DNA of 64,000 nt from an uncultured bacterium (GTDB lineage Bacteria > Zixibacteria > MSB-5A5 > GN15 > FEB-12). Where the stretch lies: positions 32,001-96,000 of the forward strand of contig CBDVDR010000002.1 in the NCBI GenBank assembly GCA_965372795.1, in the 5' to 3' direction. Positions 24,001 to 30,000 of this stretch are shown in pieces. Each line of letters starts with the position of its first letter. The first letter of the stretch is position 1. The position numbers were made by a program.

Positions 24001-27000
24001 ATTTATAAATCCGTTTGAAAAGGTTGAATAATAAACACATTCAACTATATTAGTTTCTTGAAATTATTGATTTTTATATAAATTAGACTAGGGAAGACAC
24101 AAATGGAAAACCTTTTTAAACAACTTCTTATAGATATTGGCGAAGATACTAACCGCGAGGGTTTACTGAAAACCCCGATGAGGGCTGCTAAAGCATATAA
24201 ATTCTTGACCAAAGGGTACTCAGAAGATCTCGACAAAATTATTAACAACGCTATTTTCGAAACTGATACCAGCGAAATGGTTCTCGTGAAAAATATCGAA
24301 CTCTATTCAATGTGCGAACATCATCTGCTGCCGTTTATTGGAAAATGCCATGTCGCTTATATCCCCAATGGAAAAGTAATAGGACTTTCTAAAATTGCCA
24401 GAATTGTTGATGTCTTTGCCCGTCGCTTACAAATTCAGGAAAATCTTACCCGGCAAATAGCTGATACGGTTCAAAAATATACCGATGCGGTCGGCGTGGC
24501 GGTTGTTATTGAAGCCCAGCATTTATGTATGATGATGCGCGGTGTTGAAAAACAAAATTCAGTTATGATAACCTCGTGTGTCCTGGGTGAACTCCACGAT
24601 GACCCGTCAACCCGGGCAGAGTTTTTCAGTCTAATTAAATAAGGGGAGACAAATGCTCCTTACGGTCAGCAAGAGGTTCGAATTTTCATCCTCGCACCGT
24701 TACTTTATCAAATCACTGTCTGAGCCGGAAAATTATAAGCTCTTTGGTGATAAATCAAAAGGCAATTACGGCCATGGTCATAACTATGTCGTTTATTTCC
24801 AGTTTACCGGAGCAATAGATCATAAAACCGGCATGGTTATAAATGTTGCCGATATAAAAAATGCTGTCCTGCCCCTGCTTGAAAAAAAGTACGATCATAA
24901 ATTTCTAAACCTCGATACCAAACCGTTTGACAAAATTCTACCAACTCCCGAAAATCTTTCAATAGCATTGTTCAATGATGTCGCTGACCTTTTTAAAAAC
25001 TCAAATATCAAATTACATGCCTGCCGACTTGATGAAACCGGACAATGCTCTACCAAAACTTTTTCAGCCGGACAAATTGAGCGAACTCTAAAGCTCGATT
25101 TCTCCGCCGCCCGTAGAACCTGCTCGCCCCATCTTACCGACAAAGAAAACGAACAGCTCTTCGGCGTCGCATCGTCACCCACCGGGCATGGCCATCACTA
25201 TCAAACCTATATAACCCTCACGGATAAATTTGATGAACAAAAAGGGATGGTTGTCCCCGATGTCGAATCAGAACCGGTACTGCAACGGCTGTTTGATGAG
25301 CTTGACCATCGCAATCTTAATCTTGAAGTCAAGGCGTTGTCGGCTCTTCCGGTAACAACCGAAATTATCTCAAGATATATTTTTGATCGCTTAAAAAAAG
25401 AACTGCCGGTTACAAAAATAAGACTGCTTGAAAACGAAAACTTTTTCGTTGAATATGATAATAATAACAATTTCCGGATGGGCGTTAAACAATCCTTTTA
25501 TTCAGCTCACCGACTCAACAGCAGCGAACTTTCTGAAAATGAAAATCTTTCGCTCTACGGCAAATGCAATAACTTGCATGGTCATGGTCACCAGTATTTT
25601 GTCGAATGTGTTGTCGATGGCAACATCGATGAACGCACCGGCACTATCGGTGATCTGGTTGGACTAAATAACAAACTGAAGCTTGTCCTTGATGACTGGA
25701 ACTATCGCCACCTCGATCTGGAAACCGATGATTTTAAAAATCTTCCAACAACCGGTGAAAATATCGTATCAGTCTTATGGGAGAAACTCGAAAAATCTAT
25801 AAATAATTTATACCAGATCAAACTATGGGAAACCCCCAATAATTGCTTTACTCTAAAAAAGTAACACCGGAGGAATTTTGAAAAACTGTTTTATAACCGG
25901 AGCCAGCCGGGGAGTAGGCCGCGCAGCAGCCCTGGAACTTTCTAAAAATTATGATCATATCTATATCCTCGGAAGAGACCGCTCCGCTTTAGAAAACACA
26001 GCAAAATTAATTAAAAATAATAACAGTACACCACACATCATTGAAGGTGATTTTTCAACTGTCGACGGTATAAAATCTGTGATAGATAAGATTAAAGACA
26101 TTTCATTTCATGCCATTATTAATAACGCCGGCATTGCAGAAATTAGCAGTCTGAAAAATATGACCATTGAGTTCTGGAACAAAACCTTCAACGTCAATGT
26201 CACCGCGCCGTTTTTGATCTCTCAAGCCCTCTTTGAAAATATGCCCGAAGGCAGTTCTATCGTCAACATCCTTTCAGTCGCATCAAAAAAAGGCTTCCCC
26301 GAATGGAGCAGTTATTGCATGAGTAAATATGCCCTGGATGGTTTTTCTCTCGCTATCCGGGAAGAGCTAAGAGAACGAAAGATCAGGGTGGTTAATATTT
26401 ATCCCGGCGCCATTGATACCGATATCTGGAATTCTTTACCCGGTGAATGGCCCCTTGATAAGATGATGAAACCCGACCAAATTGCCAAAGCCATCAGCTT
26501 TGCTCTTGATCGTCCGGACAATGTGCTGATTGAGGATATTACTATTACTAATTCATCCGGGAATTTTTAATCGAGAAGTGACAACCCGTCATAAATCAAT
26601 TTGGAATACTTGTCGTTGGTTTTTGCCATCTCAAATAAATAACTGTTAATCTCAAGCGTTAAGGGATGCTTGGCTTCCTTTGATATTAATAGCTCAAGCA
26701 TCTCAAGCGGCAACAGCCATTCATCCGGATACTGGTTTTTAAGTTCATCCCAAATCTCAGGAATCAATTTACAGTCGACTTTGTTATTACGACATTCTCT
26801 GACCAGATTATATAGAGCATGAAGCCGTCTTTCTTTATCACAATAATCTGATTTGATTGTCCGTTCCATGGGTACCAGATCATCCTGATCGTAAGCATCT
26901 TTATCCGCCGCCCCGCAAAATACAGACATGATATTCTCTCCGACCGCCATATCAAATTTGCCCCATTGCGGATCAAATAAAATCTTCTCTCCATATTTAA

Positions 27001-30000
27001 CCGTGCAATTTTCAAAAGTCATCAAAACGATATTTTCATTTATACAGGCAATGTCAAGAAGCATCCCCGTTAAAATTATACCATTCTCAAAATTTAATTC
27101 GGTTTGATTTCCAACCGTTATATTATTTTTGTAAAGTTCTTCATTGGTCATCGCTTCAATCGGTTTGTCAATTCCGACAAGTTTCCCAATCGGCGAGCCG
27201 AACCCGTCTTTATGATAATCTTTTCCATGACCCTCAATTTGCTTATTGTTATAAGCCAGTGCGGTCGGAGCCTCAGAATTAATATAGATCGGTTGATTAT
27301 CACCATCACAAAGCACCGTCTTGATCCAACCCGAAACTTGAAGACCGGAACTGTAAACTATGGTTGAAATATTTTTACATTCTATCGCTTTATTGATTCC
27401 CTCAAGACCTCCGGTTTGAAAAGCCATGCCCGAGGCAAACTGATTTAGGACCTCAGTCAAATTATCAAAATCAGGAGTCACAAAAAGCTGGGGTTGTTTG
27501 TTGGTGATATCAAATGCATAATCAGCAGTGTCCAGATTATATTCAATCTTCTTAACGCCATTTTCAAGGCAGCTCGATGATTCACCAATAGAAGAAAGCA
27601 GTCCGGCGCCGTATATTTTTGGATTATTAATATCTCCGATTAAACCATATTCGACCGTCCACCAATGTAGGCGACTCAACAGAGCCATCTCCGAAGGTTC
27701 GCCAAGATTATCCTGCTTCATCTCAACATCTTTTTCAGCTTTCAAAATTTCCCGACGGTCATAGCCGGGCATCTCTTTAATTATCGAAAGATGTCGGATC
27801 GCTTCGTACAATTCAAAATCTTTTTTTGATGACATCGCTTTTGAACCTATTTCACCAATCCGGTGAAGGTAATCGGCATACTTGGGGTCAGCGATGATCG
27901 GTGCATGACCGGCGGCTTCATGAACGATATCAGGGGCCGGAGTATATTCTATGTTTTCTAACTGCCGGATGTCGGCGGCTATCACCAAAACATTATAAGC
28001 CTGAAACTCCATAAATGCTGCCGGCGGGATAAACCCGTCAACCGTAACAGCTGCCCATCCCATTTTACCAAGGGCTTCATTCATCTGCTCAATACTGGGA
28101 ATATGATCGATACTAATCCCGGTCTTTATCAATCCTTCAACATAGGATTCATGAGCATGGTCTTTTAGATAGCTGTAGTTCTGACGCATGATATAACGCC
28201 AGACAGCATGATTGATCGGCGTATACTCATTATATTTTTGATCAATGATGAACTTTTTTAGATGGTTCGGAAGTCGTTTCAAATTGGCGTTGTCAAGATA
28301 GCTTGACTTGGTCGATGAACCGATTGCTGTTATCTCTTTTTCCGGAGAGGAATCCTGTTTCCCCATAACTCTTCAACTCCTAATTGTAGAATAAGTAACG
28401 TGTGTCAATCTGATCTATTATACAAGTAATTAAAATCCAGCTCCATTGGCAACAAATATTTATAAAATAATTATTTCTCGATAATATTATGAAGGTATTT
28501 AAATGCCTCAAACTGTTTAAGTGACTCGGGGTTAGCCAGGGCATCAAAATTCGTTATCGGTCGGTTGTGAATCAGATTGGTAACGGCTATCTCAACTTTT
28601 TTCCCGTTCAACGTTCTCGGAATATCATTCACCTCAAATATTTTTGAGGGGACATGACGGGGCGAGGTCTTATCTCTGATCGAATTTTTAATCTTATCGA
28701 TCAGTTCATCATCAAGTTTTAACCCTTCGGATAATACCACAAATAGCACAATCTCAGTGTCACTGCCAACCTTAACCCCGATCACGATACTTTCAACAAT
28801 CTCATCCATCGCCTCAACCGGTCCATAAATCTCCGCGGTCCCGATCCTGACTCCGCCCGGATTAAGGGTCGCATCCGAACGACCATAAACAACAACCGTT
28901 CCCTCGGTCGTAATCTTGATATAATCACCGTGATGCCAAATATCTTTATAGCGATTAAAATATGCCTTAAAATATAACTCATCATTTTTATCATTCCAGA
29001 AACAGACCGGCATCGAGGGGAAGGGCTTGGTGCACACCAGTTCGCCGACCTCATTTAAAATAGATTCACCCGACTGATCAAAGGTCTCAACCGCCATCCC
29101 CAAACCGCGGCATTGTATCTGTTCTGAATAGACCGGCAGATTTGGATTACCCAGCATGAAACATGAGATGATATCCGTCCCGCCGGAGATTGATGACAAC
29201 TGCACTTCCGCTTTAACCTTGTCATACACCCACCGATAATTTTCATCCGCCAGCGGCGCACCCGTTGAGAGTATTGTTTTTAATTTAGAAAGAGAGTATT
29301 CCGTTTTTGGTATCAACCTTCTAACCTGACAGGTTGATAAAAATTTTGGTGAGGTCCCAAAAACCGTTACCCCAACCTTTTCAGCCGCTTCCCATAATAC
29401 ATTCAAATTAGGAAATGAGGGCGACCCGTCATACAAAAAGATGGTCGCTCCCTGTGATAGCGAACCAACCAGCCAGTTCCACATCATCCACCCGGTCGTT
29501 GTGTAATAAAAAACAACATCATCCCGACTAATATTTGTATGCAGTTTATGTTCTTTATAATGTTGTATAAATGTCCCGCCGGCTGAATGAACAATACACT
29601 TTGGCGCTCCGGTTGTCCCCGATGAATACATTATATAAAGCGGATGATCAAACGGGAGCTGTTCAAATTCTATCTGATCTTTTTTCTCAGACAACAGCTC
29701 TTCCCAGATCATTATTTTGGTTATCACCGTCAATTCGATTTTATCCGATGATGTTACAATGACCACCTGTTCTATCGAGGGGATCTGCTCAACCAGCTGA
29801 ATTATTTTATCATTTAAATCATATTTTTTATCATTGTAAAAATAGCTGTCGGTTGTAACTAAAATCTTCGGTTGGATCTGACCAAAGCGATCCATCACAC
29901 TCTTAAAACCAAAATCCGGCGAGCACGAAGAATAAAGCGCCCCGATAGCTCCGGCGGCAAGCATCGTTATCACAGCTTCCGGAACATTCGGCAGTAATAC

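Follow-up and report, generated by a model that had tools for sequence, protein, structure and literature searches.

The window analysed here, a stretch of 64,000 nucleotides from a Zixibacteria genome, carries on its forward strand folE for GTP cyclohydrolase I (24103..24642; TIGR00063, 254 bits, cut-off 181.6), a gene for a chain of 403 residues with three 6-pyruvoyl-tetrahydropterin synthase (PTPS) domains (24653..25864; hereafter the triple PTPS) and a gene for a sepiapterin-reductase-like SDR of the Chlorobium type (25878..26570). The first two genes are separated by 10 bp, and the triple PTPS and SDR genes by 13 bp. The stop of the SDR gene overlaps by 4 bp that of a reverse-strand gene for a long pterin-dependent aromatic amino acid hydroxylase of the phenylalanine 4-hydroxylase type (PAH, 599 residues; 26567..28366), and the folE-triple-SDR run converges on PAH and a Phe/Tyr catabolic cluster. 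This cluster continues on the reverse strand with genes for acetoacetate-CoA ligase (28471..30426; TIGR01217, 869 bits, above cut-off), a flavin-reductase-like protein (30451..31422; PF01613, 64 bits), a fumarylacetoacetate hydrolase family protein (31427..32491; PF01557, 176 bits), a HisC-family aminotransferase (32433..33608; TIGR01141, 286 bits) which, judging from its context, probably serves the tyrosine aminotransferase step, a homogentisate 1,2-dioxygenase family protein (33593..34756; PF20510 above cut-off, PF04209 marginal) and 4-hydroxyphenylpyruvate dioxygenase (34778..35917; TIGR01263, 372 bits, cut-off 277). A first-pass annotation had placed the triple PTPS between folE and the SDR, beside PAH and the Phe/Tyr cluster, and the open reading frames were all found in place. 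A promoter/terminator scan gave 24 promoter-like sites (15.4 in shuffled sequences) and 7 terminator-like sites (4.2 in shuffled sequences), of which nothing was used; an RNA search listed none.

Three PTPS domains and their active sites

PF01242 matched the triple PTPS in three stretches (Pfam, 232 bits), and the three domains are mutually 30-33% identical. The AlphaFold2 model reached a pLDDT of 96.6 and a pTM of 0.92, and the nearest solved relatives, by sequence as well as by fold, were the PTPS of C. elegans, human and rat. The earlier description of a well-modelled chain of three PTPS domains resembling animal PTPS was thus borne out. No solved multi-domain PTPS chain was present among the fold-search matches listed, and the ESM Atlas returned only PTPS clusters, of 403 and 275 residues. 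The family extends over Zixibacteria, Verrucomicrobiota and Acidobacteriota.

Active-site positions were tabulated for 97 dereplicated homologues of the triple PTPS. The motif CxxxxxHGH defines PTPS-II (PMC5041015); further features of this class are its three Zn-binding histidines and the Thr/Glu residues that anchor the pterin (PMC10767420, PMC7546909). Domain 3 (residues 272-403; 25466..25864), aligned to rat PTPS, has the motif as C305-H311-G312-H313, and His286, Cys305, His311, His313, Thr367, Glu369 and Glu393 were each conserved in 97/97 sequences; it is the predicted catalytic PTPS-II domain. As the first-pass annotation had claimed, the motif is confined to the third domain (37/37 three-domain loci, against 0/37 for domains 1 and 2), but the catalytic cysteine is residue 305 (codon 25565-25567) and not residue 304.

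Domain 3 is devoid of an Asp-His dyad of its own, which was found at positions 350-351 in only 1 of 155 sequences. The dyad is present in domain 1 (residues 1-138; 24653..25066), where D81 and H82 (24893-24898) are kept in 97/97 sequences and align with the Asp-His of rat and human PTPS and with D70/H71 of E. coli QueD. It was reported that the first catalytic triad includes His71'' from another subunit (PMC9894224). The own site of domain 1 has decayed, its Zn-His positions being kept in 53, 59 and 51 of the 97 sequences and the catalytic position having no Cys. In domain 2 (residues 139-271; 25067..25465) a Cys occurs in the loop in only 2/97 sequences and an invariant Arg154 (25112-25114) replaces the first Zn His; R154, H179, H181, H219, T235, E237 and E260 are each present in 97/97 and D218 in 95/97. 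The earlier wording had implied that the first two domains have lost their use. This has to be revised, because domain 1 keeps the dyad that is missing from domain 3 and the site of domain 2 is invariant. The domains appear to have divided the intersubunit catalytic work and to have kept one remodelled site.

PTPS normally consists of six identical small subunits, and PTPS hexamers have been solved. The homodimer model of the triple PTPS scored 0.77, the best of three controls scoring 0.00. Among solved pairs 20 of 30 attained the mark, against 1 of 23 single chains; this calibration holds only roughly for a dimer modelled with a custom alignment and zinc, and since PTPS hexamers have been solved the pass may reflect likeness. 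The dimer runs agreed in at least 100% of contacts with a pLDDT of at least 91, the correct register being expected by chance in one case of three. In the best contacts listed, domain 1 of one chain meets domain 3 of its partner, and His82 is there in contact with residues 310 and 312. The model thus sets the dyad of domain 1, which would be part of an intersubunit Cys-His-Asp triad, against the partner's domain 3.

We propose that a trimeric PTPS ring has been fused into one chain, and that two triple chains may pair head to head and restore the usual hexamer. The symmetry of such a dimer would yield three kinds of site. Domain 3, with its Zn ligands His286/311/313, Cys305 and Glu393, would be completed in trans by Asp81-His82 of the partner's domain 1, giving two working sites per dimer. 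The site of domain 1 would face a dyad-less domain 3 and would therefore be dead and decaying. Domain 2 would face the partner's domain 2, with a complete but Cys-less pocket that carries the Arg; most likely this pocket is a pterin-binding, non-eliminating site.

The reductase, the hydroxylase and their distribution

The Chlorobium sepiapterin reductase forms the L-threo isomer of tetrahydrobiopterin (BH4). When the window SDR alone was compared with the PDB, 2ehd came first (101.5 bits) and the Chlorobium enzyme (2bd0) second (95.5 bits), while a profile of 27 sequences put 2bd0 first (155.3 versus 147.3 bits), with a margin over other SDRs of 8 bits only. The earlier claim of a Chlorobaculum sepiapterin reductase as best match therefore holds for the profile and not for the single sequence; the pathway described as animal-type is animal-like in its route, but its reductase is closest to the Chlorobium L-threo enzyme. 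S133, Y146 and K150 are invariant in the 27 sequences, which together with the 2bd0 match is the pattern of a bacterial sepiapterin reductase. In the Chlorobium-type reductase the substrate is sandwiched between Phe99 and Trp196, and Phe99 is indispensable for its binding (PMC7520308). The equivalent of Trp196 (W184) is invariant, and the place of Phe99 is taken by I89, an Ile/Val-type aliphatic residue across the cassette SDRs. A reductase of the FolM/PruA/PTR1 type was rejected: the motif TGxxxRxG, given for these pteridine reductases in PMC13259868, is not present, a Gly standing at the place of the Arg in the source-genome SDR and the cassette SDRs listed.

The PAH of the source genome is of the long type (NF010657/PRK14056, 798 bits, cut-off 346), and its His-His-Glu iron motifs align with those of PDB 7vgm. 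In the route that we propose, FolE would produce dihydroneopterin triphosphate, the triple PTPS would convert this to 6-pyruvoyl-tetrahydropterin, and the SDR would turn the latter into a tetrahydrobiopterin, L-erythro or L-threo. The adjacent PAH would use it in the source genome to convert Phe to Tyr for the homogentisate pathway, and the triple PTPS thus probably supplies a biopterin cofactor to its neighbour. Taken as a whole, a fused-ring PTPS-II working as a head-to-head dimer with trans-completed domain 3 sites, plus a BH4 route feeding the adjacent PAH, is the reading we consider reasonably likely. Of the first-pass interpretation, two elements are supported: a PTPS-II fused into a pseudo-trimer, and a folE-PTPS-SDR cassette that accompanies a long PAH.

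The distribution of these genes was surveyed in 285 genomes of the phylum (76 with the triple PTPS and 209 others), using two independent PAH queries. The SDR accompanied the triple PTPS in 73/76 genomes and occurred in 0/209 of the others, a co-occurrence characteristic of PTPS-II and sepiapterin reductase. Exceptions were 5/5 selected Verrucomicrobiota genomes with triple PTPS and PAH, in which no SDR of the cassette clade was found (best 123-141 bits, versus 305-407 for held-out members). PAH was found in 56 of the 76 triple-bearing genomes. Among 108 genomes of the family, 53 had both triple PTPS and PAH, 15 the triple PTPS only, 4 PAH only and 36 neither; the exact match of the two traits claimed before is thus ruled out. 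The folE-PTPS-SPR order, which had been considered fixed, is common but not universal. Of the 54 genomes in which triple PTPS, SDR and PAH occur together, 36 have PAH no more than 5 kb away from the SDR, and 12 have the two on different contigs. Twenty genomes have PAH without the triple PTPS: 15 carry a single-domain PTPS instead and five carry neither, the completeness of these five being 58, 78, 84, 96 and 99%.

Nor is the pathway dedicated to PAH, as had been stated, because 20/76 triple-bearing genomes are without PAH, the cassette is kept under selection there, and folE is shared. The latter is the sole tblastn match in the source genome, which has FolB and QueD, and no FolE2 was found; being the only GTP cyclohydrolase I found, folE would therefore serve folate and queuosine synthesis as well. 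HmgA is also missing in 19 of the 20 PAH-less genomes. Two PAH-less genera nevertheless keep folE-triple-SDR-carbinolamine dehydratase (PCD) in 4/4 genomes each, and in PAH-less genera the pairwise dN/dS was 0.05-0.18 for the triple PTPS and 0.10-0.18 for the SDR (unsaturated pairs, 0.069 and 0.096). The cassette in the two genera is under purifying selection.

The cassette pterin might be used mainly or originally by a non-PAH consumer (another pterin-dependent oxygenase not yet recognised, or some function in redox chemistry, metal binding or signalling), PAH being a client gained or lost beside the cassette. The two genera, without PAH, HmgA and NO synthase, and their low dN/dS speak for it, as do the retention of PCD in 11/20 PAH-less genomes and the finding of PAH at 0/42 loci (flanks up to 8 kb) of related dual or paired PTPS cassettes with folE or SDR. 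However, PAH abuts the cassette in the source genome and in most relatives, in three phyla, and pairwise dN/dS, as an average over past evolution, may be slow to register a loss that is recent. Searches for an alternative consumer found NO synthase in 0/20 PAH-less triple-bearing genomes and PF04116 (fatty-acid-hydroxylase/AGMO family) in 0/5 PAH-less genomes. HPPD was likewise found in 0/5 PAH-less genomes, in a search that had no positive control. On balance we consider a non-PAH main consumer unlikely.

Cofactor recycling and the role of domain 2

As the first-pass annotation had observed, no PCD was found in the source genome, which is 98.65% complete. A canonical DHFR was not found in it either, which leaves cofactor recycling in this genome without explanation and counts against the supply of BH4 to PAH as the best explanation. 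PCD lies beside the SDR or PAH in 31 of the 44 triple-bearing genomes that have it, and this answers the earlier worry over the missing PCD.

Domain 2 could be a second catalytic site, making the chain bifunctional, with an end product other than plain tetrahydrobiopterin, or standing in for a missing step such as isomerisation or 4a-carbinolamine dehydration. The residues of its site are invariant or nearly so, while those of the equally Cys-less domain 1 decay, and some genomes are without SDR or without PCD. Moreover, domain 2 retains the zinc ligand set of QueD2, in which two HGH histidines are joined by the dyad His from another subunit (PMC9894224). A binding-only role would likewise explain the invariance, and the SDR is found with nearly all triples of the phylum. 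The idea that domain 2 is a general PCD substitute is weakened by the presence of PCD in 33/56 genomes with triple PTPS and PAH and in 5/5 Verrucomicrobiota tested. A catalytic domain 2 seems improbable. A wider reading, also rather doubtful, is that the triple PTPS forms an asymmetric pseudo-hexamer in which the fusion of the genes released one site in three for a new function. The invariant Arg/His/His/Glu pocket in domain 2 would then be a pterin site of a kind undescribed in COG0720, either a second catalytic one or one for feedback sensing, and the PAH-less folE-triple-SDR-PCD lineages would reveal a pterin-dependent oxygenase not yet known.

A role of the triple PTPS in queuosine synthesis (QueD-like) or in the bypass of FolB (PTPS-III-like), with an incidental PAH neighbourhood, is very improbable: it could draw on the database name, 6-carboxytetrahydropterin synthase, and on 20/25 triple-bearing genomes without another PTPS-family gene, two of which have QueC, but the motif has five spacers (neither CxxxHGH nor, in any of the three domains, ExxHGH), SDR co-occurrence is near-perfect, and the source genome has its own QueD, as claimed before, with CxxxHGH in a queF-queC-queE-queD run (neighbours called by motif, queC confirmed). 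Since FolB was present in 25/25 triple-bearing genomes tested and QueC in only 7/25 (missing from 18), neither folate nor queuosine synthesis depends on the triple PTPS.

Relation to known pterin systems

Domain 3 shares with animal PTPS (rat 1b66, human 3i2b, C. elegans 2g64; PTPS-II, COG0720/PF01242) the motif CxxxxxHGH, the trio of Zn histidines and the two glutamates. Each domain of the triple PTPS superposes on the animal enzyme with an rmsd of 1.0-1.3 Å and a TM (to target) of about 0.9, and the dimer model reproduces its head-to-head assembly. In contrast to the animal enzyme, one chain holds three domains, with the Cys and the Asp-His dyad on separate domains, and instead of six equivalent sites the dimer would have three unlike pairs, one working, one dead and one remodelled.

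A dual-domain bacterial PTPS-II acting in BH4 synthesis has been published (Kong et al. 2006, FEBS Lett 580:4900, as summarised in PMC5041015). It resembles the triple PTPS in its tandem domains and in having the PTPS-II motif in the last one. Only the triple PTPS closes the ring in one chain, and its Arg-bearing domain 2 site was found in none of the dual or paired PTPS proteins compared; the triple PTPS is tied to PAH and Phe catabolism, the dual-domain enzyme to pterin glycosides. Because of this precedent the novelty claimed earlier was overstated, although no description of a three-domain PTPS or a folE-triple-SDR operon was found in the literature searched, in which few subscription papers were covered. 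Domain 3 grouped with the C-terminal domains of dual PTPS (SH-aLRT 95), sister to Chloroflexota duals (87), in a quick tree whose many open forks give no origin for the other two domains.

The SDR shares with Chlorobium tepidum 2bd0 the Ser, YxxxK (YCMSK), the Trp196 equivalent and the C-terminal segment; it differs at Phe99, which SDRs beside many dual PTPS keep. The source PAH matches 7vgm, of Bacillus cereus origin, over its full length (549 bits), and it is clustered with a complete predicted biopterin route. The FolX/FolM supply of tetrahydromonapterin to proteobacterial PAH (PMC13259868) likewise provides a folE-derived tetrahydropterin to a bacterial PAH. It uses an epimerase and a TGxxxRxG pteridine reductase, whereas the cassette has a PTPS-II and an SDR.

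The same 2026 review describes biopterin as rare in bacteria, and the present locus makes a genomic case that one group of bacterial PAHs in three phyla is supplied by biopterin rather than monapterin. The database name of the triple PTPS is corrected, and the PAH-less lineages point to a pterin consumer not yet recognised. In a natural single-chain PTPS ring, unlike in a homohexamer, each type of site can be mutated separately, and the intersubunit triad and site-to-site coupling are therefore directly testable. The compact folE-PTPS-reductase-PCD cassette may also help cofactor supply in engineered hydroxylase pathways.

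Organisation of the locus and the split active site

The folE gene (24103-24642, + strand) is followed after a gap of 10 bp by the ORF of the 403-aa three-domain 6-pyruvoyl-tetrahydropterin synthase, here the triple PTPS (24653-25864, +), and after a further 13 bp by a sepiapterin-reductase-like SDR gene (25878-26570, +), whose stop codon overlaps that of phenylalanine hydroxylase (PAH, 599 aa; 26567-28366, -). PAH is the last gene of a minus-strand run that contains hppD, hmgA, an aminotransferase, fumarylacetoacetate hydrolase, a flavin-reductase-like protein and acetoacetate-CoA ligase. 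The tandem of folE, triple PTPS and SDR (the cassette) beside PAH and the Phe/Tyr cluster was found as the first-pass annotation had described it. The 403-aa protein contains three PF01242 stretches (domains 1, 2 and 3; residues 1-138, 139-271 and 272-403) of 30-33% mutual identity, and was modelled as one confident unit (pLDDT 96.6, pTM 0.92). Short hairpins join its domains, each linking the final strand of a domain to the initial strand of the following one; in the ring of natural PTPS, according to the available passages of PMC9894224, subunits are joined by last-strand/first-strand contact. The closest solved structures are animal PTPS, and the named near homologues are mostly from Candidatus Zixiibacteriota, which is probably also where the window's genome falls.

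The catalytic triad of PTPS is reportedly intersubunit, in work by Burgisser from 1995, and we take the site residues of the rat enzyme (in part from alignment) to be Cys42, Asp88, His89, Glu107 and Glu133. PTPS is described as a dimer of trimers with active sites between subunits (excerpts of PMC7546909), with His23/48/50 as zinc ligands (excerpts of PMC10767420), and the first triad of E. coli QueD includes His71'' from another subunit (PMC9894224, in part). QueD D70/H71 align with D81/H82 of the triple PTPS. The best 80 of at least 600 matching stretches in a GTDB scan were taken as loci, 38 of which encode a triple PTPS. For the analysis of conservation, the best 120 of 2793 homologue matches were combined with 35 of these 38 loci (L022, L029 and L030 are frameshifted and were excluded), and the resulting 155 sequences were dereplicated to 97 at <70% identity.

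In domain 3, His286, Cys305, His311, His313, Thr367, Glu369 and Glu393 are each present in 97/97, and an Asp-His pair at 350-351 occurs in 1 of the 155 sequences. Domain 1 has no Cys at the catalytic position in any of the 97; its zinc histidines are kept in 53, 59 and 51 of them and Glu128 in 68, and its dyad, Asp81 and His82, is found in all. In domain 2 the loop Cys occurs in 2/97 and the first His is replaced by Arg154 in 97/97, with His179, His181, His219, Thr235, Glu237 and Glu260 each invariant and Asp218 kept in 95. The same residue pattern was observed at 37 loci with a three-domain ORF from the best 80. The triple PTPS carries the sequence features used to assign proteins to PTPS-II (CxxxxxHGH), and its catalytic cysteine, formerly numbered Cys304, is C305. 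Support for the split site is good, and the sequences suggest that the protein works like PTPS-II, with a predicted activity in which the triad is completed across domains.

Predicted dimer and the domain 2 pocket

Two triple chains would pair in one of three symmetry-permitted registers. The residue pattern predicts the register in which domain 3 faces the partner's domain 1 and domain 2 faces the partner's domain 2. For the modelled homodimer the score was 0.77, against 0.00 for the best control. In the calibration, which does not cover the custom alignment or zinc as used here, 20 of 30 proteins with a solved paired structure reached the mark, as did 1 of 23 single chains. Contact agreement between runs was at least 100% and pLDDT at least 91. 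In all 25 of the best contacts listed, domain 1 of one copy touches domain 3 of the other, including His82 with 310 and 312, the correct register being expected by chance one time in three. Domain 2 residues sit in the interface, and the domain 2-domain 2 pairing follows from symmetry. Because PTPS hexamers have already been solved, the dimer pass may reflect likeness to them.

Our reading of model and conservation together is that each dimer would hold two working, two dead and two remodelled sites. Domain 1 lacks the Cys just as domain 2 does, yet its site decays and that of domain 2 stays invariant; this contrast provides an internal control for selection acting on the pocket of domain 2. 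QueD2 holds zinc with its two HGH histidines and with the dyad His from a different subunit (PMC9894224, in the passages available), the same set that domain 2 keeps. Putative pterin binding is our preferred guess for this pocket.

Gene context and the link to PAH

Among the 38 triple loci of the best 80, folE lies no more than 1.2 kb upstream in 31 of the 35 with enough flank and the SDR directly 3' in 28 of 37; of the 29 loci that extend 5 kb or more downstream, 23 include PAH. A survey of the phylum covered 285 genomes, 139 of them matching the alignment. Seventy-six were scored as triple (66 full-length and 10 broken by contig ends or frameshifts); 53 with single or paired PTPS-II-like matches and 10 with weak matches were set aside. 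The cassette SDR was found in 73 of the 76 triple-bearing genomes and in 0/209 others. PAH, sought with two queries, was present in 76 of the 285 genomes, 56 with the triple and 20 without it, and 20 of the 76 triple-bearing genomes have no PAH. The exact match of the two traits previously claimed within the family does not hold: both occur in 53 genomes, the triple alone in 15, PAH alone in 4 and neither in 36, related genomes not being independent and the set possibly overlapping the GTDB loci. In the 54 genomes that have triple, SDR and PAH together, no more than 5 kb separates PAH from the SDR in 36, and in 12 the two are on different contigs. Pterin carbinolamine dehydratase (PCD) was again not found in the window's genome, as in the first pass; it is present in 44/76 triple-bearing genomes and adjoins the SDR (25) or PAH (6) in 31.

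In f5, another family of the phylum, 15 PAH-positive genomes have a single-domain PTPS match in place of the triple, with CxxxxxHGH where the sequence was read (2 of 3 loci fetched). PAH is missing from 38 of the 53 genomes with single or paired PTPS-II-like matches. A different pterin cassette was seen in other families at L166:6430-10135, L169:7295-8559, L170:7266-8534, L171:7283-9555 and L173:6680-10322, with single or paired PTPS (CxxxxxHGH) and either FolE or a gene of FolE2 type, which Pfam confirmed in L166. L166, L171 and L173 include a CDP-alcohol phosphotransferase-like gene, and SDRs flank the cassette in L166 and L173. Such cassettes possibly serve a pterin conjugate pathway.

No GTP cyclohydrolase I besides folE was found in the window's genome (G000, 98.65% complete), nor was FolE2 or, for recycling of the oxidised pterin, a canonical DHFR (PF00186); FolB is present. 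A QueD operon lies there too, in agreement with the separate QueD reported earlier. Among the 20 PAH-less triple-bearing genomes, HmgA is absent in 19 (4/4 PAH-positive controls have it), NO synthase was found in 0/20 and PCD is kept in 11. Two genera lack any PAH (4/4 genomes each); in three genomes of one and four of the other, pairwise dN/dS ranges from 0.05 to 0.18 for the triple and from 0.10 to 0.18 for the SDR. Many of these pairs approach saturation; the unsaturated ones give 0.069 and 0.096. Cassettes with adjacent PCD and under purifying selection lie at L158:7551-10388, L159:7607-10489, L160:6662-9561 and L161:6766-9665, in genomes without PAH, HmgA or NO synthase. The proposal that the BH4 pathway is dedicated to PAH is therefore not upheld, since no second GTP cyclohydrolase I was found and PAH-less genomes retain the cassette; the cassette is usually, not always, tied to PAH. 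PAH itself is more likely catabolic than a source of tyrosine, because the window's genome has a prephenate dehydrogenase match.

Five Verrucomicrobiota genomes, picked for having no SDR beside the triple, all have PAH. An SDR of the cassette clade was not found in these five, whose completeness is not given (best 123-141 bits, vs 305-407 for held-out members); its place may be taken by an unrelated reductase. The five genomes (L011, L028, L029, L033 and L036) carry folE-triple and PAH; in L029 PAH ends ~110 bp past the triple gene, and PCD is present in 4/4 of those tested.

The triple as a substitute for QueD or FolB was rejected, FolB being present in 25/25 and QueC in 7/25 triple-bearing genomes tested. 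Five of the seven QueC-positive genomes have their own QueD and two have none. In a 98%-complete genome with QueC (G089:C1:32587-33231), the triple is the sole PTPS-family match, so that either a QueD was missed or the triple is moonlighting.

Reductase, origin and precedents

As a single sequence, the window SDR matched 2ehd slightly ahead of the Chlorobium sepiapterin reductase 2bd0; with a profile of 27 cassette SDRs, 2bd0 came first by 8 bits. The Chlorobium enzyme is said, in work by Supangat from 2006 and 2008, to make L-threo-BH4. Its Trp196 has an equivalent in the cassette SDR, whereas Phe99 does not. In the Chlorobium enzyme both residues are called indispensable for binding the substrate (PMC7520308, in part), and the motif Arg of pteridine reductases (excerpts of PMC13259868) is absent from the cassette SDR. 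The animal-type BH4 pathway of the first-pass annotation thus stands in so far as the route appears animal-like; the SDR profile, however, is nearest to the L-threo-BH4 enzyme, and the stereoisomer may be L-erythro or L-threo.

Record titles of the triple loci among the best 80 name Zixibacteria, 'Ignavibacteriales', Verrucomicrobiota (Chthoniobacterales) and Acidobacteriota; 'Ignavibacteriales' was not counted as a fourth phylum, because its four records interleave with Zixibacteria in the tree. This quick tree held 142 domains and covered 16 of the 38 triple loci. Domains 1, 2 and 3 formed one group each (SH-aLRT 100), and domain 3 grouped with the C-terminal domains of two-domain PTPS-II proteins, or duals (95), next to Chloroflexota duals (87). 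This points to a single origin of the triple family, probably from a dual protein. At the other 42 of the best 80 loci there are duals or paired single-domain genes, which folE or an SDR often accompanies, and in several the Cys and the dyad are likewise split between halves (Poribacteria duals, Acidobacteriota pairs), which suggests that the intersubunit site was split repeatedly. The dyad lies in one half and is absent from the other in duals, mostly of Poribacteria (L052-L054, L056, L060, L062, L067, L071), and in one member and not the other of tandem Acidobacteriota gene pairs (L058, L073-L078, L080).

Unrelated three-domain forms among 150 listed representatives indicate that triplication occurred more than once. 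P0134 (421 aa) has Cys motifs in domains 2 and 3; P0135, P0147, P0157, P0209, P0219 and P0240 form a class of three-domain proteins of 370-390 aa whose middle domain holds the full Cys site. In a further class of 360-390 aa (P0139, P0146, P0149, P0160, P0165, P0181), the first domain bears the dyad, the middle part is unrecognised and the last domain has CxxxHGH but no dyad.

The available passages of PMC9894224, which classifies 34,387 PTPS sequences, mention no three-domain class. BH4 is made by cyanobacteria and green sulfur bacteria (PMC5227711, PMC3546692 and PMC4423366, all in part), and the long PAH belongs to a known family with a solved structure. A three-domain PTPS or such an operon was not found in the literature searched, mostly by titles; Phillips 2012, Kong 2006 or a SEED subsystem may list such. 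The triple PTPS is a new architecture of a known enzyme, in a cassette of known type.

The Phe cluster is adjoined by a phage head module (36181-46548, +) recognised with PHROGs. Its portal gene lies at 36181-37629, its large terminase gene at 37965-38972, the gene of a phrog_16951 protein at 39556-40962 and that of the major head protein at 42959-44062; family matches of the genes that follow, up to 49225, are weak or absent. The module could be what is left of a prophage, or a capsid module that has been domesticated. A big cluster at 1619-23671 encodes multiheme c-type cytochromes (paired CXXCH), beta-propeller-like and TPR/thioredoxin-like proteins, the Pfam comparison having covered 22373-23671.
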